From: Candidatus Omnitrophota bacterium | GTDB taxonomy: Bacteria; Omnitrophota; Gorgyraeia; Gygaellales; Profunditerraquicolaceae | Reading direction: 5' to 3' | NCBI GenBank assembly: GCA_963805065.1 | Contig: CAWDSS010000010.1 | Coordinates: 472,359-536,358, forward strand | Length of the DNA stretch: 64,000 nucleotides | Shown: positions 1-45,200 of the stretch, piece by piece | How positions within the stretch are numbered: position 1 is the first letter of the stretch | Layout: each line of letters starts with the position of its first letter | Translations under genes and position numbers: made by a program | The notes under the pieces: model-generated | The model's input: the letters and a program-made list of their open reading frames with translations, nothing else | The model's database searches: none | What the model was told of the DNA's origin: nothing

Positions 1-249
1 CATGATGTCACGTATTGCATCCTGCCGGGCGACAATCTCTTCAGGGTCAAGAAAAATACCAGTTAATTGTTCAGTCACCCAATGAGGACCTAAGTTGTTA
101 TCGCACCGGCCCGCTGTGCCGTGCATGTGTTCTAAGGCAGCAAAATCCAGATCTTTTCTTGTTTTCTCAGATAGAATAGTTCGCGGGATACCATCTTCTT
201 CTAATAAAACTCTTTCTAAATTGTGAACGGTTGTATTTTCCTCCTCCAC
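1..249 (-). other. Truncated module at the C-terminal edge of the window; possibly a MutS-like core segment
   Basis: Translation is ...LSEKTRKDLDFAALEHMHGTAGRCDNNLGPHWVTEQLTGIFLDPEEIVARQDAIRDIM. It resembles the MutS pattern LDxxTxxxLE...W...P..D...I..RQdaI. Only about 80 aa are visible. Confidence 0.3.
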
Positions 250-3200
250 CGGCGAACTGGATTCGGCTTCCTTGTTGTTAAGCACCGGCGAGGCGGCGGT
301 ATTTTTTCTACCGGGAAACTTAATTGCCACCAAAAGTTCATTTAATTCTCCTGGGTTAGTAAAAGCGCTAACACTATACTCTCTAATCTTAAGTCCACCG
401 CTTCTTTTAAAAAGGATGTTATACAGCGGCCCACAGGTAGCATGAATATGAAAACCTCGTGTTTTTAATACCCGCGTAAGTTCTTTTATAATTATAGATG
501 CATCATTTTCCGATAGGTGCAATCCTTCAAAAAAACGGCTGCTGATTACTGCATCAAAAACTTCATTAGCAAATTTTATATTTTTGGCATTTCCGCAATG
601 AACATCCAAATCCCACTGCTTAGCTGTTTCCACTGCAACATGGGAAATTTCATAGCCAGTGACCTGCGCCCCAAATTCATCTCGCAAATATCTCATTAAT
701 TCTCCGTAACCGCAACTTACTTCCAAGATTCTTTTATTTTCTAGATTAGTCAACTTTTCTGTCAAAGCATAAATAATAGGATAATAAAAATATTTGATCT
801 TTTCGGGTTCATAGTTAGGCTTTCCTCCCTCTTGTCCTAAACGTCCTTGCCAGTAGGCATCAAATTGATTATTTGGTTCGCCTTCCTTATTTAAGTCTCT
901 AAAATAATGAAGGGTTGTTACCTTATCGTTTTCTCTAGACATCGGCGAGGCGACGCGAGTTTTCTCACCCATCGGAGAACTGGGTGATGGTTGAATCAAT
1001 CTGCAATGAGGATATTTTAAATCCAACACCGGAAAGTCCGATGAAAAAACTTCTTCCAGCTTATCCTTTGTGTAGCCGCGCGATTCATCGTGGTTAATAA
1101 GACGTGCTACGGACACAACGCCTTCGGTCTTTGCGAATATTTCTGAGTGGGCACCACGAACCAAATGTCTCTTAAGTTCTCCGAGCGTTCGATAATTTAT
1201 ATTTTTTCTTTTCGCTCTCCAAATCAGTATGGGAAGATGCATTTCTGTTTTATAACCGCTAGCAACGTCTCTTGAAAAGCAAGCGAGGATATTTTCCTTC
1301 GGCACGCGGTAAACTGTGCCCGTTCCCCGTAGTGTAGAAAAATGTTTTTCGGTAATAAGTGCAAAAGACGCGAATGCCTTCCCCTCGAGATCCATGCATT
1401 TCACAAGTAAGGAGAAATTGAGAGGATCAAAGTTATTAATGTCGCTCAACTCTATCTCGCTTTCGGGACTTAAGGGCCCCAACTTTTCCATCTCAAACAG
1501 GCACACTGTTTTCTTCATAAAGATGGCGGTGATTTTCTTTCTGACATGAGGATCATAAAATGCCCAATCCGCCAATACTCTGCCGCAAATAATCTGCACT
1601 GCGGTATCATGCGGAATCCAAATGCTTTGTTCCCAATCAACGAATTTAAAGAGCCGGCTCGGCTCCGTTATCTTGAGTTGCTGCTGCCATTGACTGCATA
1701 TGTCTTTTAAGGCATTCGCTAATTCACCGTCTATTTTATTGCACCCGATACTAACGTCGCCCCCTGTCCATTCATCACTTAACGCACTGTAATCCTTGGG
1801 GTTATCAATCGTGCAATTAAATTGCCTTAGTGGGAATTTGTCCCTAAGAACCCTTAGAATAGAAATAGCCATCAATGAATGAAGCACCACATTGATATTC
1901 TCTCCCCAACGAGTTACTTTTATAGATCCCTTAGGGTACGCAGGGTACCCCCCATATGTTGGTAAGTTAGCCACCTGTTCTGCTAAATCAAGTTCAACTT
2001 TTAAATGCCTGGCTTTAATTTTCACCGGTGAGCTTCCGCGGTAGGCGGACCAGCCTGTGGCTGGAGAGGGATCAGGCGCCACCGGCGAGGCGGCGCCATT
2101 AGTTATTTTCCGCAAATCAGTCTCTTTGCGCGTAATATTTGTACATATAGCAATATTTCCTCTACACGCCATAAATAATAACTTGTTATACAGAGACATT
2201 AATCTCCAGCTGTCTCTTAGAGGTGAAGAGGCCTTATGTTCTGATTTTATTTTTACATTCAAATCTTTTAATCGGGATGGAAGATTTGCTATCAAATCAT
2301 CCGGGCCATTAGCAAGAATGGCCGGCATACCAATTTTACCCGCGGTATCTATATCAACCTTGGGACGGTCACCAATTGATACTGCCAGCTGGGGTTTACA
2401 GCCAAAATGTTCGCAAATAACTTTAAACATCTTAGATTTTCCTTCCGGCACATCTTCCTGAGTAACTACAAAATTAAACAGATCATATATATCAAGGGCC
2501 TCTAAAATACCTTTAGTCAACAGACGGCCATTATTGGTGGCAATGGCCAAGAAATATCCTTCATTTTTCAATTCGTTAAGTAACTTCCTAAGCCTCTGAT
2601 TTCTTTTAATCAGCTCAGGCGTTTTACGCAAATAACGCTTTGGAGCATCTTTCAACATTTCTCCCTGATAAGCAAAATACGTGACTAAATCAAGCCCGAA
2701 GAATCGTAGCATTGCACTCATGCTGTTTAATTCTTTCTTTTTGCTACGGAATGCTTCGGTACCTATACCGCCAAATTTCATCGAGGCGTATTCGCAGCAT
2801 GCATTCTCTTGCGCTAAAGAAAGTGCTCTGGAATCATGCAGCGTATTACCTACATCAAAAATAAGCACTTTTATGTGATTAACGAGAAGATCTTTAGTTT
2901 GCATGGGCGAGGCGGATGTAATTGTTTTCTCAAGAACTTCTTTAATATTTTTTGCTACTTCTTCAAAATCTTGCAACCTACGGCCTTGCAATGAGCGTAC
3001 ATCTAGAACCATAGCTTGAACATTGGCTTGAGAAAAATCGATATTATGGGCTTCACGCCAAGATGTAATAATGTTTGTTCCTGAACCAAACGCATCAAAG
3101 AAAATAATATAATTGATTTCTACTGATCCTTCTTCGGGCATAATATTTGTTTCTCCTATGAAACGGGAAACTAAATACTTGTGGTTAATATCTGTTGAGC

Positions 3201-6200
3201 CGATAAGCCTAAGAGAACCTTCGCTTTTTATAACATTAACAATTGAGCTGTCGATTGACAAAATCTTCCAATCCGTCTTTGAGGCATCTTTATCCTTATA
3301 TTCACTCTCTTTTGCACCGATAAGCATAGCTGCAATTGCGCTTTTGCCTACATTTATACGGCCGAGAAAAATTATTCCTTTGCCCTTAAATGAAAGAAGC
3401 TCTCCGACCCCTATCCAGCTTTCTCCTTTATAGCGAGGCTGAGTTAAGAGCAAATCTCTCATCGGAGAAGATGATTGAGAAGGCTCATTGGAATCCTTGC
3501 CAGAAACATCAAAATGTATTCGTGGGCCGACTCTCACCAGCTCCTCAAGGCGAAGCAACGCCAACATCTCGCTATTATAAAATAAACCGATTTTTTCATA
3601 AAAGAACGGTATGAAGCCTTTTAAGTAATTTGACATTTCCACGTATCTAGAGGTATCCATAACAATACGGCGTGTCCTTAAATCACTCCGGCAAAGTTGA
3701 ATAATATCTTCCTTAATCATCGGCCGTTTCTGTTTGATGATTTCACATTGCGCTTTAACGCCCTTAACAAGATAACCCAGCAAATCAAAAATCTCTGTTT
3801 TGTTTGCTTCGACAGGAAAGATAAAATACCCGCACGTACTAAAAATTTGTTTCAAGGACTTACGAAACATACCGAGGTACAGGAGAGAAAAAGCACATTC
3901 CATATCAATCGGCACAAGGCGACCTCCTTCAACAAACAAGATGTTCTCAGGGCTAATATCTGTATGCCCTATTAGATAATAAATAGCCAAGATGCGGCCT
4001 AATTGTTCTGCCTGATAGGGGTCAGATATCAGAGGACCCTGGGCTTTAATTCCGCTATGCTCAATATACTCCGACCACCCAAACGTACCAACCACATCAT
4101 GCTCCAAATGGAATTTTAAAGGCAGGGGATATTCGAGCCTTTCGAATAGATTTAATAAAGCCTCCTCCAACGCCACCGTGGGTGATGGTTTATATACGAT
4201 ACGACCCTCCTTACCTGCGCTATCTACAAATCCTAAAAGCTTTGTTCCGTCCGGCATATATTGCCTTTTTTTAAGACTACCACTTTGCAGCATATCGCAC
4301 CCTGCAGTATTAATAGCCATTTCTAAATTTATTTCTTTACAAAAACCATATTCCGCCGCTAAATTAGGAATTTGTCTCTGCCATAAATAGGCTTCAGGGC
4401 CCCTTGTTTTAGAATTAATAAATGTCTTCAAACCTACGGTTGTAGTCTCCTGTCTTGCGTTTGCGCTTAAAAGATCCGGAGAAAGATTTGTGAGTTCAAA
4501 ATACACATGCCTGTCCCCTATGCCTTCAATACTGTGCAAAGTCACATTTTTGTTAAACCACGGCAGGCTGCCATTCTCTAAAGTTCTTTGGAGGCGTCTG
4601 TAGAAAATTGAGCCTTTGCTCACTTTATTCTTTAGATCATTATTATTGGTAATCCTAAAAGAAGAACCCTCGGTGTCCACCGGCGAGCCGGAAACACCAA
4701 AGAGTTGTTTTTTTAGTAAGAGGGCTTGGGCTTTCTGTATTTCTTTTTCAAACACATCCGGAGCTCTTTGAGGCATGATACCTATCTTCCTACCCATTTC
4801 TCTCCAATACAGATATTTCTCATAAATCAGTTCACCTTGAAGAATTTTTCTCTCAAAATCCGTAAAAGAACTGTTTCTCTCAATAAAAAGCCGCGGTTCA
4901 GTGGAAAGCTGATCATTATCAAGAATACAAAATCTTCCATTCTTGGTTAAGCCATAATTCCAATACCATCTTTTGGCATCTATATCGTGAATACCGCGCA
5001 TCCACATCCGATGGGTGTAATCTAGAAACATTCTGGAATACGATCCGTAAATTCGATCATAAATATACTTCACTTCTTCTTTCCCTAATGCGCGCTCTCC
5101 AATTTTTCGTCTTAAATCTTCAATAACCCTATCATTAACAATCTTTCCCGCCTCCTGAAGAATAATATGACGATTAAAATGCCACGGTCTTTTTTCTATT
5201 AAAATGGCGGAACCTTCTAAAATAGACAATGCCAGATATCCCCCAAGACATTCTTTAGCCAAAATATAACCGCGCAAGACATTGTCTTCATCCCTGGACT
5301 GCGGAACCTTAACAAACACTCCCCCTGTTTCATCAGAATAATACAAATCCACCGCGGGTGCGATATCCCCTGAAGGAACAAAATTAAAATTAGCCTTTTC
5401 TATTACTCCACGGATAACTCTGTCACCCTCTTCCTTCAGGGTATGTTGTAGTTCTTCTATATCAATGCTCCATCGGGCCAATTTTTCCTTGCATCTAAGT
5501 AGGGCACCGGTCCTATACCAAAAAAGAATCTGAGAAATTCTAGATTCCATTTCTTTGGCACTCAAACCTGAAGATATTCCTTTTTCTATCACCGGTGAGC
5601 TAGTGAACTTTGTTCTAAACTGTATTCTAAAAAGAGTACCGTTAACTATATTCAAACGCTTGCTATACCTTAAAAGCCTTAAAAGACGTCCGGAATTGTC
5701 ATCTGGCCAACTATGTCTCAACCACCTTTCATAACATTCCCAGGCTTGGGAATCCTTATCTTGGTAGAAATAAATATCCCCTTTGATCTTCCATGCTTCA
5801 GGGGATAATGGATTATACTTAATGGCTTTGTCAACCGCTTCCAAAGCCCTATAAAACTGATTCAAGACTACATGGACTATGGCTTTCTCGCAATACAACC
5901 TACATAAGTCATTTTTCCTATCAGGCTTCGTTCGCATAATTGCCTCTTCAAGGCAATCTAGGGCTCTATTATTGCCACCGTGTTTACGATAAATTTTTGC
6001 AAGGCAAGATATTGGCTCTGGATTGCCCGGATCTTCTTCTTTATATTCATTGGCAATTTTCTCTGCAACATTGAGAAGTCCGGCGTTAAAGGCAGCCCAC
6101 ATGTCATCTTTTCTATATATCACGAGGTCTTGGATTTTTGTTATCGGCAAGGTGAGATAAGGAGCAGCCTGAGCACAAAAAGCGTTTCCTAAACTGATTA

Positions 6201-9200
6201 ATATCGTTTGCGCCAATTGATCAAAGGCCCGCTCTTTTTCTTTGAAGCCAGATGTGTTTTCCCTGATATGATCCAATATGCCCAAGACAGGCTGTTTCTT
6301 ATCAACATCATTACAGGCTTCGTTAATAAGAAATTTAAGGAAGTCAAAACAGCCATTATAAACGTAGTACGCCTCTATGCTGGCTATGCCGCGAGTTTCT
6401 TTTGCTTTCTTGTTCGCCAGCCATAAACCAACCAAACCCTGCACGAGCCATTCAACGACGTGAGTAAAAGGACTCACATAATGGCCGAAAAGAATTGTCT
6501 TAATCTGCTCTATGGTTAAAGATCTGGCCCAAGAAGCAATTATTTCAGAAGCCCAAGCCCTATCAGCCTCTACTATTACAGGTGATCCGGAATACGCATT
6601 GCCGTCAGAATCATCGCCCTCTTTTATCTTACGCCTAACTTGGTCATAGACCTCTGTTGGCACTGAAATCATGAGCCGGTAGTCAATAGTTACAGCTTTT
6701 ACAAATTCCTCGATGGCTGAGTCAGTCTCTTGGATATCTAAATAAGTCAACCCAAAGTCACGGTGAACCAAAGCAAAATCATCCGGTATAGAAAAATGGC
6801 CACTAGCACAAGCTTGTTTATAATGGCTGATTGCCTTCTGATAAAAACCCTTGTCAGAATATACATTTCCAAGATTCGCGTGCGCATCAGCACAATAATA
6901 ATTCAGACTGACAGATTTTTCTAATTCTCGAATAGCCGCCTCAAGATCAGCAAAAATAATTCCGCAAAATGTCCCCAATTGTAAATGATTGTCATAATCA
7001 AAAGGGTTTATTTCGCAGGCTTCCATGTAATGTTTCAATGCCTGCTCGCTGTAATACTTTTTCTCATCTTTGTCGGATATCTCATCCAAAAGCTGATAAT
7101 ACAAGTTACCAAATTGCTTATGGATAAAGGCCCTCATGCCGGAAGGAGACACTATCTGCATGGTAAAATAGATCAAGTCGAAAATTGGTATTCCTCCTTC
7201 TTTATCCGGCAATAACGAATCCTTATCTAATTCATAACTAGCCCTCTGCTTCATAAGATTTAATAATTTGTCCTGGGGAAGCCAATATTTTTGATTTAAC
7301 ACATGAGGCTCAAGAGGCAACCCCGTAATATCTCTAATTACTCCGCGCTGTTCCTCCAGACGGAGCCCTACACGCAGGTCTTTAAACCCTATTTTCCCAT
7401 TCATTCCGTTAGATGAGGTCGTTGGGTAAAAATCTGATAAATTTATTAGAAATATTTGTGCTATGCTTAAATCCACAAATAACACCAGATCTTTTGTTAT
7501 AGGAACAACTGTCCAGGCATGATTCTGCGAAATAGCAAATCTGATATCAACATCTAACAATTGTAAAAGAATATACGTAAACATGGGGATGGCTAAGGAA
7601 TCCAAGATTCCTCTTTTATATCCTTCTTTAATTTTTTTATCGCCCTTTAACTTATCCACGAGATCAAAAATATCATCTTCGGCAAATACATTAATTAGCT
7701 GCCGGGCAAGCGAATCTCCGGAAACCATACTATTTTCGTACTGGGACCTTATAATCGGATCCAAACCCAAAATAATCTTCATTAATTTTGTAATATCTTT
7801 GGATTTTATCAGGGGCGCCAATCTTTCCTGCATGGTTAAGAGTTTCATTTTTTCATGACTCTCTAATAATATTTCGTCAAGCATAGGAATTATCCTAAAC
7901 AAAACAGGCTGAGGGAAACCGATGGGCTTCAAAATCGAAAACAATTTTCTCATGCGTAATTCTTTATTCAGCAATCCAGTGCCCCCTACAGGCGAACCGA
8001 CAGATTGCCGTAGGAGAGGAATTTCTATTTCTACTACGAGACCAATTTGCTTCATCTTTGCCCTAACGACCATAGTATTCCAGCCCTCCGGGTGTTTCTC
8101 GTCAGCTAACAATATCCGCCTGTATTCACCGGAATGATAAACAATAAGCCCTTGACGCTTAAGAACTATCTCCTGACAAGCTAACCAGGCATTATAAGAG
8201 ACAGAGGCATCAACATCTTTTTCTTGTTCTATCAGAGGCCATCGCGGCATCAGTTCACGCACATCAATACCAACACCACGGTCTTGAATAATAATACGGA
8301 CCTTATCTTCTTCAAACAAAGTAAATTTAGCAACAACAACCCTTTTCTTTCCCTGCTCTAAGCCGTTTTTCGTCAATTGAGCCAAACATTCTATGAATCC
8401 TTCATCGCCACCAATATCCTCCCATCCTATTGATGAGATATCTTCTTTAATTGTGTTCAGATCTTTTTTTCCTTCAAATCTGACAGCCCTTACTCCAAAT
8501 AACTCGTTTAATTTTTCTATTGTATGCGAATTATCCAACAATACCTCACCCATAAACACTTCTCTTCTCGCTTGGTCATTCAAATAATTCTTGTCGGATA
8601 AAATAGCAATAAAATCGTCTACGATTTCCGGATCAAGTTGAGTCCCTTTAACCTTAAAGAGTATCTGTATCGCCTTCTCAATGGGCATTCCTTGGCGATA
8701 AGGCCTGTCAGAGGTCATCGCATCAAAAGTATCTGCGACAGCGGTTATCCTGGCGAGTAGAGGAATTTCTTCGCCTTTCAATCCATCCGGATACCCCTTG
8801 CCATCGTAACGTTCATGATGATAGCGTATGATTGACCTGATAATATCATTTGATTGTTCTCTCCATGGGTTCTCAGAAAGAATTTGATCGCCTTTAACAG
8901 AATGCTCTTTGATTTTCTCAAACTCATCATCTGTCAAGCGATCAGGTTTATTCAAAACTTGCTCAGGCACGCCAATCTTGCCTATATCATGTAAATCAGC
9001 CCCTTTCTCAAGAGCGTCTATCTCATCCATGTTCAATCCATACCTGAGAGCAAGCCAAAACACATACATCCTCACGCGATCCGTATGACCGCGCGTATAG
9101 GGATCTTTAGCTTCAATGGCATTGGCAAGCGTCGATATCAAACCAAAATCGGTCCGGAAATATTTCTGTTGCTCAATAGCCGCCATTCCTAACTGCACAA

Positions 9201-12200
9201 TTGGACCAAGGGCTTTAATATCTTCTTCTGTAAACCTTCCTTCTTTTTTATTAACTAGCTCTAACACGCCCATTACTAAACCTCTAGTTTTAAGTTTAAT
9301 AGGCATATACAATAAAGAATGCGGTCTTGGGCCTATAAAACTACTCAGCTCTTTGTCAAACGATGGGCCTGTTCCGATATTGTTAATGAAAAACCCTTTC
9401 TCTCTTTGTTCTTGGAGTGCTAAAGCGATATAGCCTTCTTCATGCTCCAGTAAGATCTTTTTCAAAAATTCTCTATGCGGGCTGGTCGAAGCTGCGCAGT
9501 AAAGATATTTAGCATTATCTTCTAAGAACAAAAACATGGAACCATACTCAGCACCTGTTGCCTCAAGAACAGCTTCAAGAATTTCTTTCACAAGATATTG
9601 ATTGCCCGAAGAGAGAAACCACTGGGCTATCTTTGTCAGATCAAAAGAAGAATTGTTGTAATTATTGGTGGGGGAACTGGCCAAGCGACTTTCTTGGTTA
9701 AATTTCGTGGGGATATTAAAATCCAAATTTTTAACTCTGTCTAATCTTCCTTCTTTCTCGCCAAATTTAACAAGTGCGATGCCATGTTTAGAAATCAGGA
9801 AATTCCAAAAAGGAAAATATTCTAAGTCCAAAGATGACTCGTCGTTACCATAAGTAATAATATTTCTTTGCGGAATGACAAACTGAGGCCTTAGACACCC
9901 TATCTCTTCTATCTCTTTTTTAACAATGGTTTCAATTCCGGCAGAGCAAATTACAACGCCTTCTAGGGAGAGATATAAAGAACTTAAATAATGAAGGAAA
10001 TAATTCTTTAAATTTGCTTCGCCACAATGCATGATTGCCAATAACCCTTTATTATTGGCCTTAAGTATCAGCATAGTGCAACCGTGGAACATAATGGAAG
10101 AATCTATAAGGTAATCGTGTTTGAATAAATACAACGGTTCTATCTCAAACAAATGAATATTCACGCGATATATCTTCTGCCTTCTTGCTCCTTTCAAGAA
10201 TTGGCACAAAACAGCACCATTGGTTCGCGCATATCCTCTATTCCCTATTTGAGACAGGTGAAAATGTGCATCTGTTAAAGCCAATCTATTCTGAGTATCA
10301 ATGACCGCCTCGGCATATTGTGCGACGATTATTTCCAGAACAACCCTATCGCCCCCCACAGCATCGCTGTTGGCGACACCTTCCGCCAATTGATGCATTT
10401 TGTCATTTTCTGACATTTGAATTCCTATCGGCGAACTTGTACTGAGTGTAGTCGAATTGCCGTAACGCTTGAACCACCTTGCCTGCTGAGATTCTCTTAA
10501 CGCTTGAACCGAATCATTGATGGCCTTTTCTTCGTCATCCAAGCTCTTCTCTAAATCTTTCCACAATTGAATTCCAAGAGCCGTCGGATTTTTCACAAAA
10601 TAGGACAGCACCTGATCAACCGCCTGCTTTCTGAAAAATAAAGTGATGATATACTCTGTATTACCCTTATCTAAACCTTCCAAGTGTACACCGCGTTCTT
10701 TAGCAAAATCGGAAATCTCTTGGGGAAGTTTATCAAAAGAAGAAAATTCAATATATCCCAGAGGAATCATGAAAGTGCTTGAAACTTGCAATATAGCGCT
10801 AATCATAAAATAATCGAGGTCCATCCCCTCTATATTGACTTCCAGATCATTCAAGCCAGGCCGATCCGCTATCATGAAATAGCCAAACCAAAACTGCGGG
10901 AACAAGGCGACGCCGATAACAATCTTCCACCACGCCAACAAAGGCAATAAAGATGCTTCATAAAAAACGACAAGCAACAAACCAACCCCTAAGGAAATAT
11001 TCATCAACGAAAACTTTTGCTGAGCGGATTGAATATCGAAGTCTTCTGGATGGCTTGGTGATAAAATTTCGTCATACTCTTCTGAGTCATTTTTGTAATC
11101 TAAGTATCGGTCAAACAGTTTTTCTAGATACTTTATGGATAAAATAATACCTGCGCCTAAAGAAACCTGAAGGCTGACTAAAATGAAGTTATGGGGTAGG
11201 AATAAAGCAAATATAGCGCCGCCGATTGTTACAAAAAACAGGCTCGATAACATGCTTACGGCAAAATACCGGATAACAAAGCTGGCCCTTGTAAAATCAT
11301 AAAACGAGTTCTGTCGCCTTTGCATTCTTTTTGCCTGAGCCAAGACAAACGTACTGACAACACCAAGCAGCGGCACAACAAAAGTGCTTGCATGAAATGC
11401 GATCGGAGAACTGCCTTTTTCTTGCTCTGTCTTGCCGTTTTTCTTCTGAACGTTCTTTGTTGCACTATTACTATTCTGAATAACAATTCGGCCTAGGGCT
11501 GCCCTTTCTCTCCCTGTTAAGCTCAGCGAGATTTCTTTTTCAATAATTTCAAAAAATGCCTTCGCATTTCTTTTAAGCTTAATTGCAAAATCACTTGCTG
11601 AAGGTATGTCAAAATGCGTTTTATTAACCAACATATATTGTTTTAATAAACTCACTGTTTCCTGACGATTAACTTTTAAGCCAATCAAAATAACCCTAAG
11701 GGACATCTGATCAATTATGCTGTCTTTATTAACGAATAGAAGGCCTTGTTTGATTATTTTTGGTATAAGAGAGGATAAAACGGTCTTATTTGTTGAAATA
11801 GCTGTATTGAGAATTTTGGGCTCCGTGGAATTTACCACCGCCAAAATTTCAGATAAACACTGCCTTAATTCTTCTTTTTCAGAAGCCACGGTAAATAAAA
11901 GAACATTACGGTATAACTTGTTAACTTTTTGCCTCATAGTAAAATCCACAAAAGCAGATGCTTCAAGGTGGGAAAATTTCTCGAATCTCTCTTGAGCTAA
12001 AAGCCTAAACAAAGTTTCTATGTGATCTGAGGATTGATAGGCATCCAAATGCTGAATCAGCGCTCTATCCCCAATCTCTTTGGCCACAAGACGCGCGGCA
12101 TTCAAAAATGGCACCTTTGCATAATGCGGATAAATATCTTTTACATTCCAGCCTATTCTTTTTAATAAAATCAAGGTGCGTTTAGCATCTTCCATTCTTA

Positions 12201-33200: not shown

Positions 33201-36200
33201 GAGCTAAAATATTATAGTTATCTAAAGTCGGCCTTCCTGGATTCACATGTTTGACCATAGGCTCGGCATACTTAATGACAAAACCCGATCTTTCCAGATA
33301 GAGCTTAATTGTATCAAGAGTAAAATGGAATAAATGTTCCATTAAATTCAAAGATGGGCCATCCTTGGGCGTCATGGGCACACGTAAAAATACAAATCTT
33401 TCTGGCTTCAAAATACTATGTATCTTCTTTAAGAAAACCAGAGGTTCTTTTAAATGCTCTATTACAGAAAAAGCAGTTATAAGGTCGAAATCTTTACTTA
33501 TGAAATTTGTCTCCAGAAAATCATTATTTATAACCTTGATGCCGCTCTGTCTTATTCTTTGGCAAGTTTTTTCGCTTAATTCAACAACAGTAATATTCCA
33601 ATCTCTTTCTTTTGCTTCTTCATATGTCAGGCTTACTCCCGGCCCGATTTCTAAATATTCTAATTTGGGTCCAAACAATATCTCGGGATCGGCCTGTCTT
33701 AAGGCAGCCTCAACAGTATCAAATTCCTCCTGAGCCCTTCTGCGTATTTCTTCTTCCGGCAACAATTTTGCATATCCAAATTGTAAACAATTGAGGCTCT
33801 CAAAATATCTATCACTATAAATATACTCAAAATATGTTTCCCCGGGTTGAGGGTTCATAAATATCAATCCCTCGGCATCGATATCAAAGAAAATTTGCCT
33901 TCCGTTGAGCACAATAGAGGTAACATGCGGATAATCACCCAGGTAAATGAATTCATCAAACACGCTTTCTGGTAAATCAGAAAGATTTATGTGGTCTGCC
34001 ACAGGAACTGCTGCATCAACCTCTTTAAACTGATAGATATTTGCTTTTCTATTTATGCCCTCCTGAACAGCCATCGGGCTGCTGACTGAACCCTCTACCT
34101 CTTCTTCATCATTCATGACATAGCGGTTAATAAACTCATCGGTCGTCATGTGCTCCAGAGGCTTAGTTGTTATGGTATTCCAAAACGCTTCTATTGCCTT
34201 TAATTTTCCCCAGCCGAATTGATGCAAAATCCCCATGGCTTTTTTAACATAATCATTTCTTTCTGTTTCCAGCCTCATCCATTTCCAAAACGCATCCATC
34301 GCTTCATAACAGGCCAAATCAAAGCTGTATTGCTCTATACATTTTTTTTCATCAAGAGGATAAAATTTAAGCACATCCTTTTGAGTAATCAGATACTCAA
34401 AAGGCCTTTTGTCTTTTGTTGTTTCCCAAAAATCATTTACTGACGGCATCAAGAAAATAATACCGCTCCTTGGATGCAGATGAGCTGCTACTTTGCATAT
34501 TTTTGAATCGAAAGGAGCAGCAAAAGAACATGTTAAATTATCTTCTCCTGTAATTTGATATCCCTTCCTAATCCACCATAAACCCGGCTCTTTCTTTAAG
34601 AAAGCATATTCACAATAACCATCTTTTAGAGCTAATTTGACAGAATCAGCAACGATCTTTCTGTCTTTCACGAAGACCCCTTCATTGGCTCCAAGACTAC
34701 TAAGTAATTCGCGAGCATTTCTTGCTCGGCTCGAATCTCTTACAAAAGAATTGCTCGATACATAAACGTTATTGAAATCCCCGGTAGCTTTTCCTATTGC
34801 TACAATGCCAACTATGAAAGCAAGCAATAAAGTAGAGAGCCATAATTGAGGCAAGTTCATAACATTAAAAATCAAAGAATAAAATGAAATCGAAATAACG
34901 ACTAAACTAACTGCAGCTATAACTCCATCTTGTGAAATAAGCTTAGCCAGTTTTTCATGGCGGGCTGAAAAATCCTCTACCGTTGTCTTCCATGACTCAA
35001 CTACTCTATTACGCGTCTCTTTTAAGCCTGAAACCATCGGGCTGCTACCCTGTCTATTAATCCTGTCTAGAATTTTGTTAATTCTATTATTAACTGAATC
35101 AATGATAACTGACTTAAGCAGGACTGCTTTGCGGTATTGCTCTAACAAGGATTGTTCATACGCCTTTGCGGATAGACTTGAATCAACCTCGGCCCTTGCA
35201 TTCTCAAACGAAATTCCTCCTTCTCTTACCTTCTTTGTAATAAATAACGGCCTTGCGCCTTCAGATATTCTGGATGGCTCATAAGGAGCCTTGGTTATCA
35301 ATTTTAGAATACCTTCATCCGTTCCATTAAACGCACCTAAATCAATCTTTTTAACATCAAATCCTGCCATGGTTAACATCGTGGCAAAGGTTATGTAATT
35401 AAAATGGATTAAATGATAAGAATGAATTTCGCCAAACTCTTTACCCTGAAGTACACCCAGTAAGCTCAACATATCTGGAGATTGTGCGATTAGGATTCCA
35501 TTATCCTTAAGGAGGGAATTTGCTTTCTTAAGCATGGCCAGTGGCTCTGTGGTATGCTCTAATACATCAATCAAAGTAATAATATCAAATGTACCGGCTA
35601 TATCAAATATAGTGCCTTGTTTAACCGGTATGCCTACTTCTGCAGCCCTTACTACAGCTTCTTCTGATATCTCTATTCCTTCAGCGCGCCAACCTAACTC
35701 CTGAGCTGCTTTAACCAGCCATCCACAGGCAGCTCTTACATCAAGCAGTCTTATTGCTTCATAATCCTTGATGCCAAATAATCTTTTTACAGGTTCCAAT
35801 ATACCTTCTTTAAGGTTCTGAGTGCTTTCTCTCTTGCCAAAATAGTCGTTATATCCTCCCTTCCCTTCGCCTTGCTGGAAATAATCAAACCCATACATCT
35901 TTTTAAGTTCGCTTTCAGTCGGGAATGGTTGATTAAATACTAATCTACATCTCTGGCATTTAAGAATATCAAATTTACGATTGATGCCCCTGTATAATCT
36001 ATTACCAAGGTAAACTTCTAATTCTCCAGATTTGCATAAAGGACATCGTATAGGGCTACCGGATAACCCATCCCTAGCTCTCTCCAATAACTCAAATACT
36101 CCCAGCTCTTCTAAATCTTTAATAGCATCCTTTTTATTTAGTGCAGATTTTAGAAGTTTTCCCATTCCCTTATCTACGGCTATGCCAACAGCTGCTCTTA

Positions 36201-39200
36201 AAGGCATCGTTTTTACAGCTGACCTCATCATTTCATATATATCCTTTTCAATCTCTAAGCTAAACTGATGCTTAAGACGCAATGCTCTTAAAACTGAACC
36301 TAAGAATAAATTATTGCCGTCACCAGCAAAACTAACTTTTCTTCTTAATAAATCTTCCAGGCTCTCTACATGGCCATACAAATACCCTTCGCTATCCATT
36401 GCCATATATAATAAAGAAGGTCCAGTATATGAGAGGTACATTTGTTTAGTACCAGCATCCACCATGAATTGCTTTGCGAAGTATTTTTCTCCTGTGCCTT
36501 CATATACACCCTCTGCTGGTCCGACATATTCCACAGAGGCGCCGCGGAATAAAACAATATTCTCTCTTCCGCTTTTGATTAACTTCTCTGTTTGGACGCC
36601 CATAGTTGCGGAAAGTTTAGATAATGCCTGCATGGCTCTGTCATTAATTGCTTTAGTTGCCCTGCTTCTTGTGTTAATAAGCCTTTCCCCTTCTTCCGGA
36701 GTGACAAAGATTTTTACTGTTATATCTATATCAGACACTGGCAAATTGAATAAAATGTCTCTAATGGTCCCTCCTATAATAACAATATCCGTTAATCCAT
36801 TTTTATTAAGCAATTCTAAGAAGGCCTTTAATTTCGAATCTCGCATTACTGCTGGATTGATTCTCTTCTCTTCGATAGCTTTCTTAACTAAAGCAATATC
36901 TAAATTTGGAACCTGACGCTTCCACAATCTTATCGGACTTGATGTAGCATTTAGCTCATTCAATTCTTTTCTAAGAAGTGTTAATTCGTTTTCTAGCTTA
37001 GTGGCTTTTTCTTTTGCTACTTTAAGATTGCTTTCTGCTTCTTTTTCCTGGATAAGGACGTTATTCTTACGGACCTGTATGTCATTTAACTTCTGAGCTA
37101 CTGTCTGTGCTTTATTTTGAATCGGTTTTAAGGCCTCATTCAGGGCGCTGACTGTATTTTGCCTATTTAACTTGGTGGCATTTTCAATATCTTCCGTAAG
37201 TTCCTTAACAACAGTATCGATATCTGACTTTTCTTTAACCGCGGCATTCAATTGTGTTATTAAGTCGTTTTCTTGGGTGAGTGCAGCATCAAGCTTGGGC
37301 TGAAGAGCTGCAACAGCTTGTTTAAGCTCTCTTAAGCTGTTTTCTTTCTCGCCAATAACTTTGTTCAACTCTACTATTTTCTCTAGCCTCTTTATTCTTT
37401 CTGCATCCTCTTTCTTCTTCTGCTCAATTGTTTCGGCTAAGACCTTGGCTGTATTTAGCCTGCCTTTTTCTTGAGCTTCTTTGAGGGATTGCTCGAGTTC
37501 AGAGAGGCTGGCTTGCAGTTTGGAGAGAGCTTGTTTGGGTTCTGGAGAGGGCTTCTTAGACACTTCAACTACTTCTAAATGTTCCGGAGAGTCAACTACC
37601 CATTCTTCCCATTCTTCATAACCCTCCCAGTACGGACCAGTGCAACTATATCTTGTTTCATTATGTCCTACTTCTGGTTTATATATTAGCTTGAAGAAGT
37701 CTAAGCCTTTTTCTCTGATTTTGACAGCCATAGGTAGTAAACCAAAAAGATAACCTTCTGAATGAAACTGAGTTTTTTCAGTAACTTGCATTGCCTGAGT
37801 TTTTAATTCAGAAAGAATGTTTTGAATGAACTTGGCCTTGGGACCACCGATCTTAATAATTGCCTCGGCCATTGTTTGAGGTAAGTTTCCGGAGCGCAAC
37901 TTTTCCATTAATGGCTCTATGGCAATCGGGTTACCCAGCTTGCCAAGAGCTATGCCTATGGCTTGAAGCGCATCGCCAGTTGAAGATTTTAAGGCTGCAA
38001 TCAAGGGTTCCACAGCTTCAACGTCAAGTAAATCACCTAAGGCAATAGCAGCTTCTTTGCGTACCACTAAATCAGAGCTCTTCAGAGCTTTAATGTTAGC
38101 CTTAACCAGCTTTTCTTTGCTAACTCCGATATTTTCTAAAGTTTTTCTTGAAGCCTGGCGAACGCTGATTGCTTTATCCTCAAAAAGCTCTAGCAAATGG
38201 TCTGTAGCTTTTGTGTCTCTGAGAATATCAAGGGATTTTACTGCTGCTTCGCGTACCTGCCACGTAGAATCTTTTAAAGCTCTAATCAAGAATTCTAAGG
38301 CTTTTTTATCCTTTAATTCACCCAAGGATAGGGCTGCATCAACTCTCACATTTGAGTCTGGACTCTGCAATGCCTTAATGTTAGCTTCAACAAACTGATC
38401 TTGAGTGGCTCCCAATTTTCTTAACACTGTGATTGCAGATATACGAACATTTCTATTCTCGTGAGAAAGTTTTTCTAAAATATCTCCTATGGCATTTTTT
38501 GCTGATAAAATTCCCAAAACCGTCATTGCTGTTATCTGTGAATCTGAACGGCCTTCTTTCAATACCTTTAATAAACTCTCTATAGAAATTTTCTGAATTC
38601 TCTTACTTTTAACCTTTTGCCATTTTTCAGCAAAACTGACAATCTCTGACTCAGTCGCAGGTCTTAAATAACGTTCGCCTTTTAAGATACTGAATACAAA
38701 AGTGGCATTGACTACCAAGCCTATCAGAGAACCGAGATATCCAACAACCAAACCTATCGGTTCCTCTATGGATACCCATGCGAAGAAAATATAAACGCCT
38801 AATCCGGCCAAACTCATTGGCAGAAAATCTTCGGGAGCGCCTGCAGGATCAAAAAACCCGCGATATAATATTTTGGTAATTATCGAAATTCTATTTCTAA
38901 TGCCCAAACCAAAATTCTTGGTAATTTTATTAACTTCATAAGCATTCTTGATGGGGTAAATGACAGAGAAAATCACAAAAGGAACTATATAGGGTAGGGA
39001 AATCCACAATGCAAATCGCCACCCAATAGGAATAGCGCTCAAGAAACTTGTTACAGACTCTAATAGTGGGACGATGTTGTTAAAAATTGACAAAATCGGG
39101 CTGCTGGATGGCACGCCATAAATGATTGAGGCAAGTGGACGTCCACCGTGATCCTTGAAATACTTTCCTGTTGTGCTATTCAGCCCTGGCTCACCCATTA

Positions 39201-42200
39201 CCTTACCGTAGCCTTGAACATATTGCTGTACATCAAGACGGCTGCCAAGCAAGATTGCGTCTTTGGCTCCCAGATAGCTCATTGCTTCAGCTATCTCTGA
39301 AATGCTCATTTCCAGCTTATCTTGTGGATATCCGGACATTGATAAGATGATAATATTTCCTTCTTTATTGGCTCCTATGGCAGAAAAGCTCATCGTATCC
39401 GCTTCAGGGTTCCAGCTAACGGAATTCCCGTCAAGACCCTTTATATTCTCTTTTAGTAAATGGTATTTAAATTCGCTGTTTTCAATCAGAAGCGGCCCCC
39501 CTATTGCAAATTTAATCCCGGAAATATTCTCCTGAGGAATGCCATTTGCAAAGTTAACGGCAAAAAGATGATTTTCTGCTTTCTCTAAAATGAAGAAGTA
39601 ATGAGTGCCTTCGAGTAATTGCACTGAATCCTGCATAAGGCCTGGCGCTGTCTTGGAAATAACTTTTCCATTTATGATTATGGCTGTATTCGCCTCCCAA
39701 AAGTTACTCTGATGGCCGTTAACCGCCAAAACCATATTTAACTTATACACTAGATTATGGAGTCTGACAAATTCATCTATTATATAGCCCGGGAAATGCA
39801 CAAAGCGCTTGTTAAGTTGAAAGGCTAGCTTTGGAGTCTGGGCCCACTTGCTGAAATCATATTTTGGCGCTACCAAGTTATACCAAAGCTTCAGGCTGAC
39901 TTTGTTCAAATCTACTACGATACCCCTTCCTTCAGCAAAAGTAGTCTTATTTTCAAAGATAACCTTTGAAACTTCTAAACCATTAATATGATTATCATAA
40001 GGATAAACTTTTAAGCCGGACAAAACCGGGCTGGATGTCTCATGCGAAGAGCTAAGCTTATCAAATTCAACTACAGCTTTCTGAAATTCTAATTTGTGCA
40101 TTGCAATTTGCTTTTGAGTTAATCTGAATCGTTGGCTCAGACCACGCGCTAATTTTTCCAAATCTTCTTTCTTAAAATACTGTTCTGCAAATGCTATGTT
40201 TAAGGGTAATAATTGATCGAATTGAGACATAACTTCGGTTTTAATCTTTTTGGTAAGAGATTCGTCTTCCGCTATGGTGTCCTCGTTTTTCAACCACATT
40301 AAAACATCCATTACAGCTTCTTTTCTGGCTTGAGTCTTTTGTATCTGGTCCAAACTAGTATATAAACTTATTAATTCTTCCCGAAGTTTGGCTAACCCAT
40401 TTTTCGTTTCCTTAATCGACTTATTAAGTTCTGCAAGCTTATTTGTCTTGGTTGCAATAATACGTCTCAACTCAGAACGCCTTAAACTATTCTGCCTCTT
40501 TTCATTTATTCTGCTGATTGCTGCCTTAATAGATAAAGAGATTTCTGTTGACTTTTCAGCCATCGGGCTGCTGCCCTGACCGTCATCTGTAATGTTAGGA
40601 TAGGATTTTCCAAAAAGATTAAATGCAATCATCGTTTTGGCCATCTCTAAGAATTCTTCATATCTCTTTAATCCTCTTTCTACCTGTCTTATGTATTCTT
40701 CTATTCCTTCTCCTTTATAAATACTGGGGTGTTTCAAATTAGCCAGGTTTTGTTCCGCTATCTTAAGACTATCAATAAAACTTGCCAACACCGCTTTAGC
40801 TTCCCCGATTTCAAGGGCAAATAACAATTCCTTTTCTAAAACAAATAGGTTGGGATGAGGAACTGCTGAGCGAAGCTCTTCATCCAGAAATCCATATTTT
40901 CTAATTAATGCTGCTACCGCATAGTGTAACAGGTTTGAGTACGCTCTATCGGCATAACTAATTTTCTTCTCATAACCAAAAATCATGGGCTTATGGAAGA
41001 AGATAAACCCGTAATCAGGCTCATACCAATTCAACTTCGTAAGTAAAGCCTCGGCTACTTCGCCGCCAAATTCGCTAAGCAGCCCTTCGTAATACTGTGG
41101 CGTAACAGTATTGGGTTGATGAGTCATGATATATATAATCAAATTATTTAAATAATTATTCTGTTTCTCTGTATTATATTGCGCACAAACAATTTTGGAG
41201 GCTTGATTGAATTGCTTTGCATTAAATTCAATAACTTTAAGCTCCAATAAGCTAGCCAATCTATGGGCAAACTCAGAAGAAGTAATTTTTCTATTCTGAA
41301 TGTTAATAATCCCTATTGCTTCAATGGCTTGGTCAATTCTTATCTCAATGTCGTCCAGGGTAATGGGGCTTGTGGCTTCCTTGCTTTCATACTTCTGCGG
41401 ATTAATCAGCATATCGAGGTAATCGGGATGATCCATGATGTAACGGTAGCCCACATAAGGCAGATAAGCAAGACCAGTTATAGGGCCTTCTTTCTTGACA
41501 AGGTTGGTAAGGGCATTACGGATATCGGTTGCTGAGGCAAGCCCTACGCCTTTTAAGAAAGCATGATCCACGGCGGTAGTAATAGGCACGGGTCTTTCTC
41601 CTCGCTGAATGAACAAGACTTTAATCGAATGAACCTCTTTGTTGAAGCCATATTGGTTAGCCTTGGACTCAGGCAATTCTTCAAACTTCTGGATAGTATC
41701 TAGCGTAGGCTCCACGCCATAGTAAGCCGCCCAATTCTTGTAATCCTCTGTGTCTTTACGCATCTCCTGGGGTGCCTGGATAGAGCCTTTGATAATCGTG
41801 CCGTCCGTAAGGACAAACGGTATATTTTTGCCGTTTTCATCCTTCTCCATTTTATTCTCAGCCCATCTGTTATAATGGTCACCACCAACAAGATAAAATG
41901 CCTTAATGGGTTGTTTGGGATTCAGAGATAAAATACGGAAGGTGTCATATTCGGCGTCGTAGCTGACGTTTTCAGAATAGCCGAATAACGGCGCAAAAAT
42001 TTTCATTTGCTGCTCGGAGAGTTCATAGCGGTAAGGCTCTGTTACTTTTAAAATTTTCTTACGCCAATCCTTGCCGCTCTGGATATCGTAGTAGACTTTG
42101 TCTACTCTTTGCTCTGCAATCGCCTTGAAGCCAATGAGAAAATGATCCCACTGCGGCGGATTAGCTGCAATACCGAAGAGGGCAAGGTTTAAGACTCTGT

Positions 42201-45200
42201 CAACCACCACAACATCTTTTTCTCTACCGGTGGTGTAAATATTCACCTGTGGATTAACTACGCCTTGGATAAGATTAGTAGCAATCTGCCTTAAGAAGTT
42301 TTCAGCATGGGACAGGCGTATTGCAAACTCTTTGTAGCTAAGATCGAGGCCGATTACTGAGGCCATGTGTTTCATGTCATCAACGATAAACTCATATAGA
42401 TCTTTGGTCACTGGGTGATCGTAGAGGGTAATGGGGCTTGTGGCTTCCTTGCTTTCATACTTCTGCGGATTAATCAGCATATCGAGGTAATCGGGATGAT
42501 CCATGATGTAACGGTAGCCCACATAAGGCAGATAAGCAAGACCAGTTATAGGGCCTTCTTTCTTGACAAGGTTGGTAAGGGCATTACGGATATCGGTTGC
42601 TGAGGCAAGCCCTACGCCTTTTAAGAAAGCATGATCCACGGCGGTAGTAATAGGCACGGGTCTTTCTCCTCGCTGAATGAACAAGACTTTAATCGAATGA
42701 ACCTCTTTGTTGAAGCCATATTGGTTAGCCTTGGACTCAGGCAATTCTTCAAACTTCTGGATAGTATCTAGCGTAGGCTCCACGCCATAGTAAGCCGCCC
42801 AATTCTTGTAATCCTCTGTGTCTTTACGCATCTCCTGGGGTGCCTGGATAGAGCCTTTGATAATCGTGCCGTCCGTAAGGACAAACGGTATATTTTTGCC
42901 GTTTTCATCCTTCTCCATTTTATTCTCAGCCCATCTGTTATAATGGTCACCACCAACAAGATAAAATGCCTTAATGGGTTGTTTGGGATTCAGAGATAAA
43001 ATACGGAAGGTGTCATATTCGGCGTCGTAGCTGACGTTTTCAGAATAGCCGAATAACGGCGCAAAAATTTTCATTTGCTGCTCGGAGAGTTCATAGCGGT
43101 AAGGCTCTGTTACTTTTAAAATTTTCTTACGCCAATCCTTGCCGCTCTGGATATCGTAGTAGACTTTGTCTACTCTTTGCTCTGCAATCGCCTTGAAGCC
43201 AATGAGAAAATGATCCCACTGCGGCGGATTAGCTGCAATACCGAAGAGGGCAAGGTTTAAGACTCTGTCAACCACCACAACATCTTTTTCTCTACCGGTG
43301 GTGTAAATATTCACCTGTGGATTAACTACGCCTTGGATAAGATTAGTAGCAATCTGCCTTAAGAAGTTTTCAGCATGGGACAGGCGTATTGCAAACTCTT
43401 TGTAGCTAAGATCGAGGCCGATTACTGAGGCCATGTGTTTCATGTCATCAACGATAAACTCATATAGATCTTTGGTCACTGGGTGATCGTAGAGGGTAAT
43501 GGGGGAAGAAACCTTTCCTTCTTCTATCACAAAATTACCAAACGGATTATTTTCACTGGCACGTCTGGAATTATCAGCATAGATCTTCCATGTTTCACCC
43601 ATATCGGTTGAAAGCCGAGCAGTAAGTTCAAGCCTCTGGCCTGCTTTAATACTAATATATTTCTTGAAGACAATATTATGCCCCTTCAATTCACCGGGGA
43701 ACATCTGTCCGAGACTTTCCATCTCTGTAGCTTGACTGCATCCTATAAGCTCAGCCTGATAAACACCACCCATTGCTAAAGACATCATTGAGGTATAATT
43801 GTAAATTAACGCAGGCGATACATACGCTTCGACTGTTACTTCGTAAACATCTGATTTAAATTCTGTGACGTGCATATTCCCTAGCCAAACATTTTCAGGA
43901 TTGAAAATCTTATTGCTTTCTAAAGTCCACCAAAATTCAATATTGTAAAGATCAATTTCCACTATATGGTCTGTCAATTCCTCATAGGCTATCTCTTCCG
44001 TGGGCTCTAGAATAGAATCTGTTCCACGCAAACCTATCGCAACCTTACCTAACAGGGTGTGAGAAATTATTCCACCGAACTTTGTCAATAATAGAATCTC
44101 TTCCGCACCAATATGGCCTTTCCCCCACTCATCTTTAACACTGTTTCTACCGTACCCGTAAACGAGATGGGCTATGACGCGGCGAATGCCGTCTTTTCTT
44201 AACTTTCTAAACAATTCAACATGAAGCTTAAAACCTAACCCCTGGCCTTGATAGTCGTTATCCACAGCAGTTGAATATAAATTGTATTCTTTTATGGCAC
44301 CGTGATAACCGAGATAAGTAGCGATAATATAACCTACCAGTTTACCTTTACCTGTACGTGCCGTAAATGTAACGGTATCATTGTGATCCTGCGTCTCGAG
44401 CAAATCATTGACCAAATTATCATTTTTGTCTGTTGTCGGAAGAGAGGCTAGCGCGGCATAATCTTTTGTGCGGTCTAAGCGTTCTGCTTTTATAATAATA
44501 TTTTCGGTGGGAGATGAGGCGGAAAATTCCTCAGGCTGAGCTCTGGTTAATGCGGTATTGCCTAACCCGCGCGCTTCCAGATATTGCTCTGTGCCTTGAA
44601 ACACTACTGCTGAACCGGATAAATCCTTACCTATATTATGTACTCTGTCATGTGCTATACGTTCTAAAATATTGGCTAATGCCAGCGAATTAATTGTGTT
44701 ATTAGCATTATCCTGCGCTGGAATCGTTTTTTCTTGTGTCTCATCAGCCAATGGGCTGCCGGATTTTCCTTCCCTTCCCTCTAATTGCCTCTTTAATTCA
44801 TCAATTTTCTCTGTGGCGTTTTCTGTAGTAAAACCATTAATGAAACTTAAAGCTTCAGAATAATGAGGAATAATTACTTCTATCCCCTTCCGAATTTTAT
44901 AGATATAGGGATCTGGTTCCATATGACTACCAATATAGATTTGTCTATAAATAGGAATTTCCTCACCATAGTAACAATCAGCAGAAGTTCGATCGTATCC
45001 AATAAATTCGCCATTTATATAATCCTTTACTTCTCTTTCACAGCGTTCAGGTACTTCTATAAAGATTCCTTCAGAATCTTCTCGGAGCAATTTACTAATA
45101 TATTGGATCATCGTGTTGATATCGACGCCTTTTTTCTTAAGTTCAAATAGTTTAGGAATAGAGCACCTTAGAAAATCCTTATAACCAAATTCATAACAAT

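Follow-up and report, generated by a model that had tools for sequence, protein, structure and literature searches.

Blocks of serine codons at the module junctions of a giant Omnitrophota gene

Introduction

How does a bacterial gene come to string about 50 unrelated proteins into one reading frame, and what keeps the boundaries between them in place? These questions are raised by a 64,000-nucleotide (nt) stretch of a Candidatus Omnitrophota genome (contig CAWDSS010000010.1, positions 472,359 to 536,358; referred to here as the window). The minus strand of the window, 1..64000, is one uninterrupted open reading frame (ORF) of 21,333 codons with zero stops, open at both ends and the sole long open frame. 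From codon 6415 on, about 51 copies of a short motif with the consensus [STAG]-[SG]-S-P-[VIML] separate enzyme-sized, unrelated modules. An initial annotation of the locus, whose coordinates and quoted strings are plus-strand reverse complements of this ORF, noticed that the serine before the proline is encoded by TCN in some regions and by AGY in others (N, any nucleotide; Y, pyrimidine). Is the motif selected as protein or as DNA? Why would its serine codons come in blocks? Do the blocks record how the gene was assembled? The best overall explanation, which we hold with modest confidence, combines a junction constrained at the level of the protein with local propagation of junction DNA and the movement of segments.

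The junction motif and the module boundaries

The part of the gene that carries the motif is as follows.

253..44757, minus strand: junction-rich part, codons 6415-21249, about 51 junctions, modules of 10-1,073 residues

The pattern [SGAT]SP[IVLMTA] is found at 51 sites against 4.0 expected, 50 of the 51 within codons 6400-21333, and the tripeptide SSP occurs 35 times against 2.7 expected; the reversed dipeptide PS stays at expectation. In a position-specific profile, the information is limited to five positions:

Position -2: S, T, A, G or V
Position -1: S in 35 of 50, otherwise G or A
Position 0: S in 50 of 50
Position +1: P in 50 of 50
Position +2: V, I, M or L; T or A rarely

Nothing replaces the serine. 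Thr, Cys and Ala are each observed 0 times at position 0 (1.5, 0.2 and 2.4 expected, respectively), and this strictness shows that one-step intermediates between the two serine codon families are not tolerated. All six serine codons are nevertheless in use, just as the initial annotation had claimed (AGC 20-21 times, TCG 12, TCT 7, TCA 6, TCC 3-4 and AGT 2), and so are all four proline codons. One copy of the motif, SAGSPV at codon 3035, was dropped because it is not conserved in the relative L102. A reassigned stop or an internal start at the junctions was also considered and rejected, since no codon is common to all of them and many +2 codons (GTT, GTA, ACN, GCN) are not start codons.

What does the motif separate? 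All-versus-all comparison of 53 modules with blastp and phmmer returned only one identical pair, one pair with 27% identity and one marginal match of 61 residues. The modules are whole proteins. The HAD module (228 residues, codons 20364-20591) aligns from its residue 13 onward to residues 2-192 of the 241-residue PH1655, and to residues 2-210 of many standalone HADs that are 202-219 residues long. In an AlphaFold model of codons 10440-11130, confidence is confined to the part between the two junctions, located at model residues 38 and 652. In a related giant frame, L007 (JBFMBZ010000081.1, codons ~6322-7275), junctions precede the Fer4/TPP and the POR/POR_N parts of pyruvate:ferredoxin oxidoreductase. 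The junctions thus sit at the edges of whole, independently folding proteins, the HAD, methyltransferase and GT5 modules having the full length of their standalone homologs. The L007 ORF holds domains of all four subunit types of that oxidoreductase (Fer4, TPP_enzyme_C, POR, POR_N, PFOR_II), split by junctions of the Ser-Ser-Pro-hydrophobic (SSP-phi) type.

Serine-codon blocks

The regional counts of the initial annotation were all reproduced. From the N-terminal end, on the minus strand, the junctions fall into the following groups.

43504..44757, minus strand: first three junctions, beyond the blocks first described, with AGC (44755-44757), TCT (44512-44514) and TCC (43504-43506)
27934..42438, minus strand: AGY block A1, 12 of 13 AGY, exception TCG at 30727-30729; AGCAGCCCGATG recurs
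22099..26589, minus strand: TCN block T1, 8 of 8 TCN, in a dialect of its own (SSPA and SSPL, three times each)
14626..21855, minus strand: AGY block A2, 10 of 11 AGY, exception TCA at 17872-17874
253..11409, minus strand: TCN block T2, 16 of 16 TCN, with the dialect mostly xxx TCG/TCA CCG GTG/ATG

Even the weak PSPTV site that had been set aside from T2 (serine codon 4183-4185) uses TCA. Read from N to C with A for AGY and T for TCN, the order is A, T, T, eleven A, T, A, eight T, five A, T, five A and sixteen T. The permutation that the initial annotation had asked for bears it out: there are 10-11 runs where about 26 are expected, and none of 200,000 permutations in one test, nor of 50,000 in another, gave so few. 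The block pattern is real and robust.

Could a regional codon bias or mutational regime set the serine codon, so that the blocks say nothing about the junctions? Serines outside the junctions are the obvious control, and the one by which the initial annotation proposed to be judged. Their AGY fraction is 0.32, 0.33, 0.37, 0.38 and 0.37 in the five regions, with no regional switch; bins of 1,000 codons show none that would match the blocks, and the G+C content at third codon positions (GC3) is 0.37-0.38 in every block. As the AGY fraction of these serines is flat across the blocks, local codon bias is excluded; no support for this explanation was found, and we regard it as refuted and scarcely credible. 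The class of the serine codon also shows zero association with the residues at -3, -2, +3 and +4 or with the proline codon.

What can the codon family then tell? TCN and AGY cannot be interconverted without leaving serine and the position tolerates nothing else, which makes the codon family a slow marker of the origin of the junction DNA. Independent origins under protein selection would give background codon usage without runs, and a fixed DNA adaptor would give one codon throughout. The data fit a mixture, a strict requirement for the peptide together with propagation of junction DNA, both by recombination at the cores and by movement of multi-module segments.

Selection on the protein or on the nucleic acid

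The junction DNA had been described as locally GC-rich, and this is real and exceeds what the amino acids require. GC3 is 0.68 at codon -2, 0.70 at the serine and 0.64 at the proline, where the residues alone predict 0.40, 0.41 and 0.43. TCG makes up 12 of the 28 TCN junction codons against 12% in the background, and AGC 21 of the 23 AGY junction codons against 56%. The strings first quoted as examples are the reverse complements of GCC GCC TCG CCG GTG (283, 2080) and GGC AGC AGC CCG ATG (21847, 40561).

Is the junction, then, primarily a nucleic-acid signal, a site of DNA recombination or of RNA processing or pausing that exists in at least two versions, with Ser-Pro as a by-product? Several observations point that way: the synonymous G/C excess at codons -2, 0 and +1; the frequent use of TCG, and of CCG at 25 of 51 junction prolines against 23% elsewhere; the recurrence of identical 12-16-mers; a hairpin apex in the relative L106 that is conserved and encodes SSPVAG; and the fact that junction cores have served once as a recombination substrate. 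However, every serine and proline codon and many +2 codons are used, no nucleotide consensus goes past NNC-CCN-RTN, and it is the residue at position 0 that is invariant and not its codon. Ordinary junctions are no more structured than control positions, and orthologous junctions switch codon family while keeping the peptide. A junction that is primarily nucleic acid is therefore distinctly unlikely.

The orthologous junctions deserve a closer look. In relatives, the junctions that flank the GT5 module, compared at 42-50% identity, keep SSP-phi and use the other codon family:

GT5 N-terminal junction: AGC in the window, AGC in L014, TCT in L007, TCA in L005
GT5 C-terminal junction: TCG in the window, AGC in L003, TCT in L005

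The proposal that the motif is selected at the protein level is sound: it is supported by the use of six serine and four proline codons, by the lack of Thr, Cys and Ala at position 0 and by orthologs that keep the peptide with the other codon family. The last 15,000 and more codons string together about 50 unrelated complete proteins, mostly enzymes of cytoplasmic type, with small-small-Ser-Pro-hydrophobic at each boundary. In our favoured explanation this motif is held by selection on the polypeptide, most probably as a recognition site for polyprotein processing, or at least as a required signal between modules.

Proposed local propagation of junction DNA

Do the junctions of a block share DNA ancestry, as first suggested? 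For a core of about 12-15 nt they appear to; outside codons -2 to +2 there is essentially zero similarity, and the claim does not extend there. Within the core, adjacent junctions are more alike at the serine codon and at the +2 codon (0.61 versus 0.48 at +2, p<0.0005), and the similarity decays with neighbour distance. Where the +2 residue is valine, the codon GTT serves 4 of the 5 AGY junctions and none of the 10 TCN junctions (Fisher 0.0037). Identical 9-12-mers at the junctions are region-specific: TCGCCGGTG occurs four times, always within codons 19772-21249 (the last 1,500 codons, block T2), and AGCAGCCCGATG five times, always in AGY regions. Even the lone TCA of A2 (17872-17874) carries a 12-mer, AGCTCACCGGTG, identical to two T2 junctions. 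The peptide dialects differ by block as well, with SSPA confined to 22-26.6 kb.

How could a core travel? One event is directly visible.

41371..43506, minus strand: tandem duplication of a 356-codon module (copies 42439-43506 and 41371-42438), 100% identity between the modules by blastp

The two copies, of 1,068 nt each, differ solely at the serine codon of the junction (TCC versus AGC), and their identity extends 14 nt into the next junction. Because it runs into the next junction, the duplication must have recombined two junction cores at a 12-nt microhomology, CCCCATTACCCT. It is recent and gave the new joint the AGC of the distal junction. Our favoured explanation would generalise from this case: junction DNA would not be made anew for each boundary, and recombination or slippage between short GC-rich cores would carry codons to a neighbour. 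Duplication of junction-flanked cassettes, which had been offered as a general mechanism, fails, because the modules are mutually unrelated save for the one identical and the one 27%-identical pair.

Two other exact repeats, neither of them in tandem, are both far longer than chance would give. The 19-mer ATACGGCGTGTCCTTAAAT is found at 3665-3683 and 29332-29350 and is read in two different frames. The 18-mer AAGGCTGACTAAAATGAA, at 11170-11187 and 15370-15387, has its copies 4,200 nt apart and in frame, and straddles the AGY-to-TCN switch at 14.6-11.4 kb.

A repeat-bounded TCN segment

Block T1 has physical limits. A 17-mer, CCTTCCGTGGCTGGTGG, is present in three exact copies and one with three mismatches, where 0.08 are expected, and each copy belongs to a hairpin at one end of the block.

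26389..26561, minus strand: hairpin copies a and b, roughly 85 nt with the invariant apex CCTTCCGTGGCTGGTGG, in a 76-codon mini-module that opens T1; z -4.1 and -5.4
21882..22077, minus strand: hairpin copies c and d, in an 82-codon mini-module that closes T1; z -5.2 and -2.6

Copies b and c are 4,398 nt (1,466 codons) apart, in frame, and enclose 7 of the 8 T1 junctions. Excising the segment between them would join A1 and A2 into one AGY region of about 24 junctions, so that T1 has the look of a cassette that entered a single large AGY region. The repeats at its edges give independent support to block-wise accretion, the route by which the gene was first proposed to have grown; that proposal also gains from the duplication at a junction microhomology. 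The switch at 14.6-11.4 kb, to which we return below, is not explained by this. Multi-module segments may move as units. In the present layout, a large AGY region would extend over 42.4-14.6 kb, with a TCN cassette between hairpins set into it at 26.4-22.0 kb, and a TCN region (11.4-0.2 kb) would follow.

Concerted evolution offers another route to the same blocks: short-tract gene conversion or template switching would homogenise the cores in place, without any movement of modules or accretion. This would account for a similarity that is restricted to about 12-15 nt and decays with neighbour distance, for orthologous GT5 junctions that, in L003, L005 and L007, have the codon class prevailing around them, and for one motif type being common to whole lineages. 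But 12 nt is a very short tract for homologous conversion, T1 has discrete repeats at its limits, as expected of an inserted segment, and singleton exceptions persist in the blocks, the one at 17872 having the exact 12-mer of distant T2 junctions and not that of its neighbours. Homogenisation in place is, on this evidence, an unlikely account of the blocks.

The hairpins have features of their own. They lie on the sense strand inside the coding frame, with z-scores from -2.6 to -5.5 and nine pairs that show compensatory change. The apex is invariant (CCGUGGCUGG within CCUUCCGUGGCUGGUGG), and the outer and inner stems vary between copies yet still pair. Among the copies the 17-mer is read in all three frames (PSVAGG, LPWLV, TFRGWW), from which it follows that it is kept at the level of the nucleic acid. 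Within the hairpin is the E. coli Chi octamer GCTGGTGG, perhaps by coincidence. Hairpins of this kind occur in two relatives:

L007: 16407-16505
L106: 22849-22939 and 20521-20611 (minus strand), 12186-12275 (plus strand)

L106 has two 71-nt hairpins that are 99% identical, 2,328 nt apart and in frame, and it is here that the conserved apex itself encodes the junction SSPVAG. A scan with a model of the hairpin turned up three copies in L106, and no additional ones in the window or among 27 related loci. The 17-mer was not found in viral contigs. Rfam returned nothing at the gathering threshold for the whole window and, for 21.7-26.8 kb, nothing even at E<=1. Could every junction hide a hairpin? 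The idea was dropped, as the sequence around junctions shows no more structure than 600 control windows do. At 2029-2088 (codons 20638-20657), a 19-residue spacer between two junctions holds the perfect palindrome CCAGCC-ACC-GGCTGG, and the 90 nt around the junction at codon 20638 have a lower folding energy (-35.4 kcal/mol) than those around any other junction. The hairpin-bounded segment itself (22099-26589) carries a minimal nucleotidyltransferase (PF01909) and a borderline Recombinase match (PF07508, 21.2 bits against a cut-off of 21.1), the sole recombinase signal. For the junction-dense stretch at codons 13151-14257, no homolog was found in genome contigs, metagenome contigs or an index of 5.8 billion proteins.

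Junctions in related giant genes

Is the motif a peculiarity of this gene? SSP-phi is enriched in a subset of the relatives (observed versus expected):

L003/P0001: 5-6 versus 0.7
L007: 10 versus 1.8
P0014: 12 versus 0.6
P0025: 15 versus 1.0
P0048: 9 versus 0.5
P0018: 6 versus 0.6

It is absent from other giant ORFs that share the GT5 module. Some lineages have another motif at the same HAD-module boundaries: RSExR (P0021, 16 versus 0.1 expected; P0041, 9 versus 0.0; the type is also present in P0033 and P0020), DNGG (P0079, 9 versus 0.1) or DGG (P0011 and P0050, 10-11 versus about 1, or 0.9). One boundary may serve as an example, with slashes added: ...HKAS/SPLRD in the window corresponds to ...HKTS/LDNGG/RQ in P0079. 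Different motifs at one boundary are what lineage-specific processing sites would be expected to give. The D(N)GG types resemble double-glycine processing sites. In the window, C39-type double-glycine processing finds no counterpart (DGG once versus 4.4 expected, DNGG 0, no PF03412 match).

These sister motifs bear on the simplest explanation of all, namely that Ser-Pro is no more than a flexible linker or helix N-cap that is favoured at boundaries and appeared at each of them by convergence, the blocks being due to chance or to the way the motif was defined. Ser-Pro is indeed a common helix N-cap, and the junctions lie in low-confidence segments at domain edges. Independent origins, though, would sample the background of 36% AGY without runs, and the observed runs were reached by none of the 200,000 permutations; generic linkers are not so sequence-specific, and sister lineages have wholly different, equally sharp motifs at the same boundary. 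Convergence is accordingly very improbable.

Do the codon blocks recur too? The junction classes in the relatives are as follows, with the letters used above.

L003: 6 of 6 AGY
L103: main ORF 16 of 16 TCN (background AGY 0.35); AA then TT in two upstream ORFs
L007: AATTTTTTTT
L104: one adjacent AA pair among TCN
L105, L106: mixed, no clustering

Runs tests are significant in L007 (p=0.044) and L103 (p=0.010) and not in the other relatives, and the heterogeneity between genes has p=0.004 by permutation. Coherence of the codon family within a region or across a gene thus recurs without being universal, and the blockiness is weak in L007 and L103. The relatives found through the GT5 module and the membrane core share only those two parts with the window, and their modules are otherwise almost fully reshuffled. 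In the closest relative, L102, the contig stops before the junction region. A motif type common to a whole lineage, with modules reshuffled between relatives, fits lineage-specific sites of polyprotein processing.

A bacterial polyprotein?

The gene has what a polyprotein would have, several complete and independently folding proteins in one frame with a short conserved motif at their boundaries. Proteolytic processing at these junctions is therefore plausible, and we treat them as putative cleavage sites; the processes described above may likewise account for all the blocks. A bolder extension can be imagined, in which the giants of Omnitrophota and their relatives are true bacterial polyproteins cut by lineage-specific proteases (at SSP-phi, RSExR or D(N)GG), a dedicated mechanism inserts and excises modules and multi-module cassettes at the cores, conserved in-frame hairpins act as recombination or RNA-processing sites and the codon blocks are the fossil record of it all. 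This is a speculative picture, possible but doubtful as a whole.

Several points weigh against a protein-constrained junction whose DNA propagates locally. Only one junction-mediated recombination event is directly visible, and because the modules within a block are unrelated, the descent of the junctions is not traceable through their flanks. A hairpin-model scan of the window placed no such marker at the change from AGY to TCN (14.6-11.4 kb), and L105 and L106 carry SSP-phi without block structure. The synonymous G/C excess at codons -2, 0 and +1 shows a force at the nucleotide level that this account leaves unexplained. In the AlphaFold model, the predicted local distance difference test (pLDDT) is below 50 at residues 1-42 and 652-691, outside the junctions, and since these flanks are without alignment depth the low values may partly reflect that. 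The window, searched against Pfam as 21 chunks, matched no peptidase family at E<=0.01, in a gene that continues past both ends.

Whatever the fate of the protein, a sharp boundary motif provides concrete, testable candidate sites and a rational guide to dividing these giants, whether for expression or for predicting their structures. As to how genes of 60-440 kb are put together and rearranged, the first clues at the level of sequence come from the codon blocks, from the duplication at a junction and from the cassette between repeats.

Domain content of the giant gene

The window is a fragment of a giant multi-enzyme gene of the Omnitrophota type. Its single ORF of 21,333 codons lies above the length of at least 10,000 codons that goes with a multi-enzyme giant protein, and its nearest homologs are proteins of Candidatus Omnitrophota/Omnitrophica metagenome-assembled genomes (MAGs), at 50-56% identity. 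The window contains no marker gene. Modules with Pfam matches include GNAT, HEAT, NAGPA, four class-I methyltransferases, starch-synthase GT5, GT1/phosphorylase, nucleotidyltransferase (NTP_transf_2), phosphoglucomutase (PGM), GAF plus an HD-GYP-type HD (HD_5), TPR, DUF4135 and HAD. The families that tile the ORF (PF08241, PF00583, PF13419, PF13487/PF01966, PF08323, PF00534, PF02879/PF02880, HEAT, TPR) include none that dominates.

The N-terminal third has four kinds of sequence: 88-residue tandem repeats, a 2,000-residue stretch without Pfam matches, a hydrophobic membrane-like region and 87-residue coiled-coil-like repeats. The first are at 61246-64000 (minus strand), where at least 11 units of 264 nt (88 residues) follow head to tail; the copies after the first, at least 10, are mutually identical, and GC3 is 0.61-0.66 against 0.38 in the remaining gene. 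The coiled-coil-like repeats, at 46227-48506 (minus strand), come in two groups of three; their units of 261 nt (87 residues) are 68-93% identical, and the region gives weak DUF5749 and DUF1217 matches. Long hydrophobic stretches are found at codons ~3500-5000 and ~5930-5970. The hydrophobic core (48907-54615, codons 3129-5031) has zero Pfam matches and is the best-conserved part of the gene, with 56% identity to an Omnitrophica MAG protein; it is also 31-34% identical to a protein of a MAG labelled Elusimicrobia (relatives compared: L102, L017).

Comparison with known systems

How does this gene compare with better-known systems in which modules are joined or moved? In integrons, gene cassettes are flanked by attC sites and so are bounded by repeats. 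T1 resembles them as a multi-module segment bracketed by structured, partly conserved hairpins in direct orientation. It differs in that its elements lie inside an ORF and keep it open, with no attC-like consensus, no integrase and no Rfam match, and in that most junctions are hairpin-free. A search of the window for an integron-like array, with attC-type sites between cassettes and an integrase, found instead junctions of 12-15 nt without structure.

MARTX toxins process themselves: a cysteine protease domain cuts after Leu in the linkers between effectors, and modules are shuffled between strains. The likeness is that of a bacterial giant protein with effector or enzyme modules, which in MARTX are released by linker cleavage. 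The window has no match to that domain in Pfam, its motif is Ser-Ser-Pro-hydrophobic and not Leu-small, and its modules are housekeeping-type enzymes and not toxins; membership in the MARTX type, with an inositol-hexakisphosphate-activated cysteine protease domain and a cut after Leu, does not apply.

Viral polyproteins carry short protease recognition sites at protein boundaries, for example those of picornavirus 3C and potyvirus NIa. The window is like them in having unrelated complete proteins in one frame, a sharp lineage-specific boundary motif and short spacer peptides between close sites. It is unlike them in its bacterial host and its about 50 or more modules, with no cognate protease found and with processing that is putative.

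The use of serine codons as a record of descent also has a precedent. If codons of both families are found for an invariant serine, the sites either descend separately or have passed through a state other than serine, so that the codon family reports ancestry; Brenner is said to have used TCN and AGY codons in 1988 to mark the lineages of such serines. The same reasoning applies here, and the difference is that about 50 sites within one gene are compared and not homologous active sites across enzymes.

The closest comparison is with the giant genes of Omnitrophota themselves. The window ORF is like the class 1, 'multi-enzyme metabolic', giants (bioRxiv 10.64898/2026.06.07.730766) in its more than 21,000 codons and its many Pfam families without a dominant one. 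It shares with them methyltransferase, GNAT, HAD, HD, starch synthase GT5, GT1, PGM, HEAT and TPR, hydrophobic segments upstream of the enzyme string, and closest homologs among Omnitrophota MAG proteins. Co-occurrence modules 1 and 2 of that class are PF08241, PF00583, PF13419 and HD, and PF08323, PF00534 and PGM (Nielsen & Lui, bioRxiv 10.64898/2026.06.07.730766, section 8), and all of these are represented in the window. Papers on giant bacterial proteins leave open whether they act whole or cut, and some state that cleavage points or protease motifs are unknown. A search confined to a limited set of papers found no junction, linker or cleavage motif described, neither for the class 1 giants nor for the giant genes of West-Roberts et al. 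(bioRxiv 10.1101/2023.11.21.568195). The junction motif, the codon blocks and the hairpin elements are thus additions to the published descriptions, new features in a gene of a known kind.

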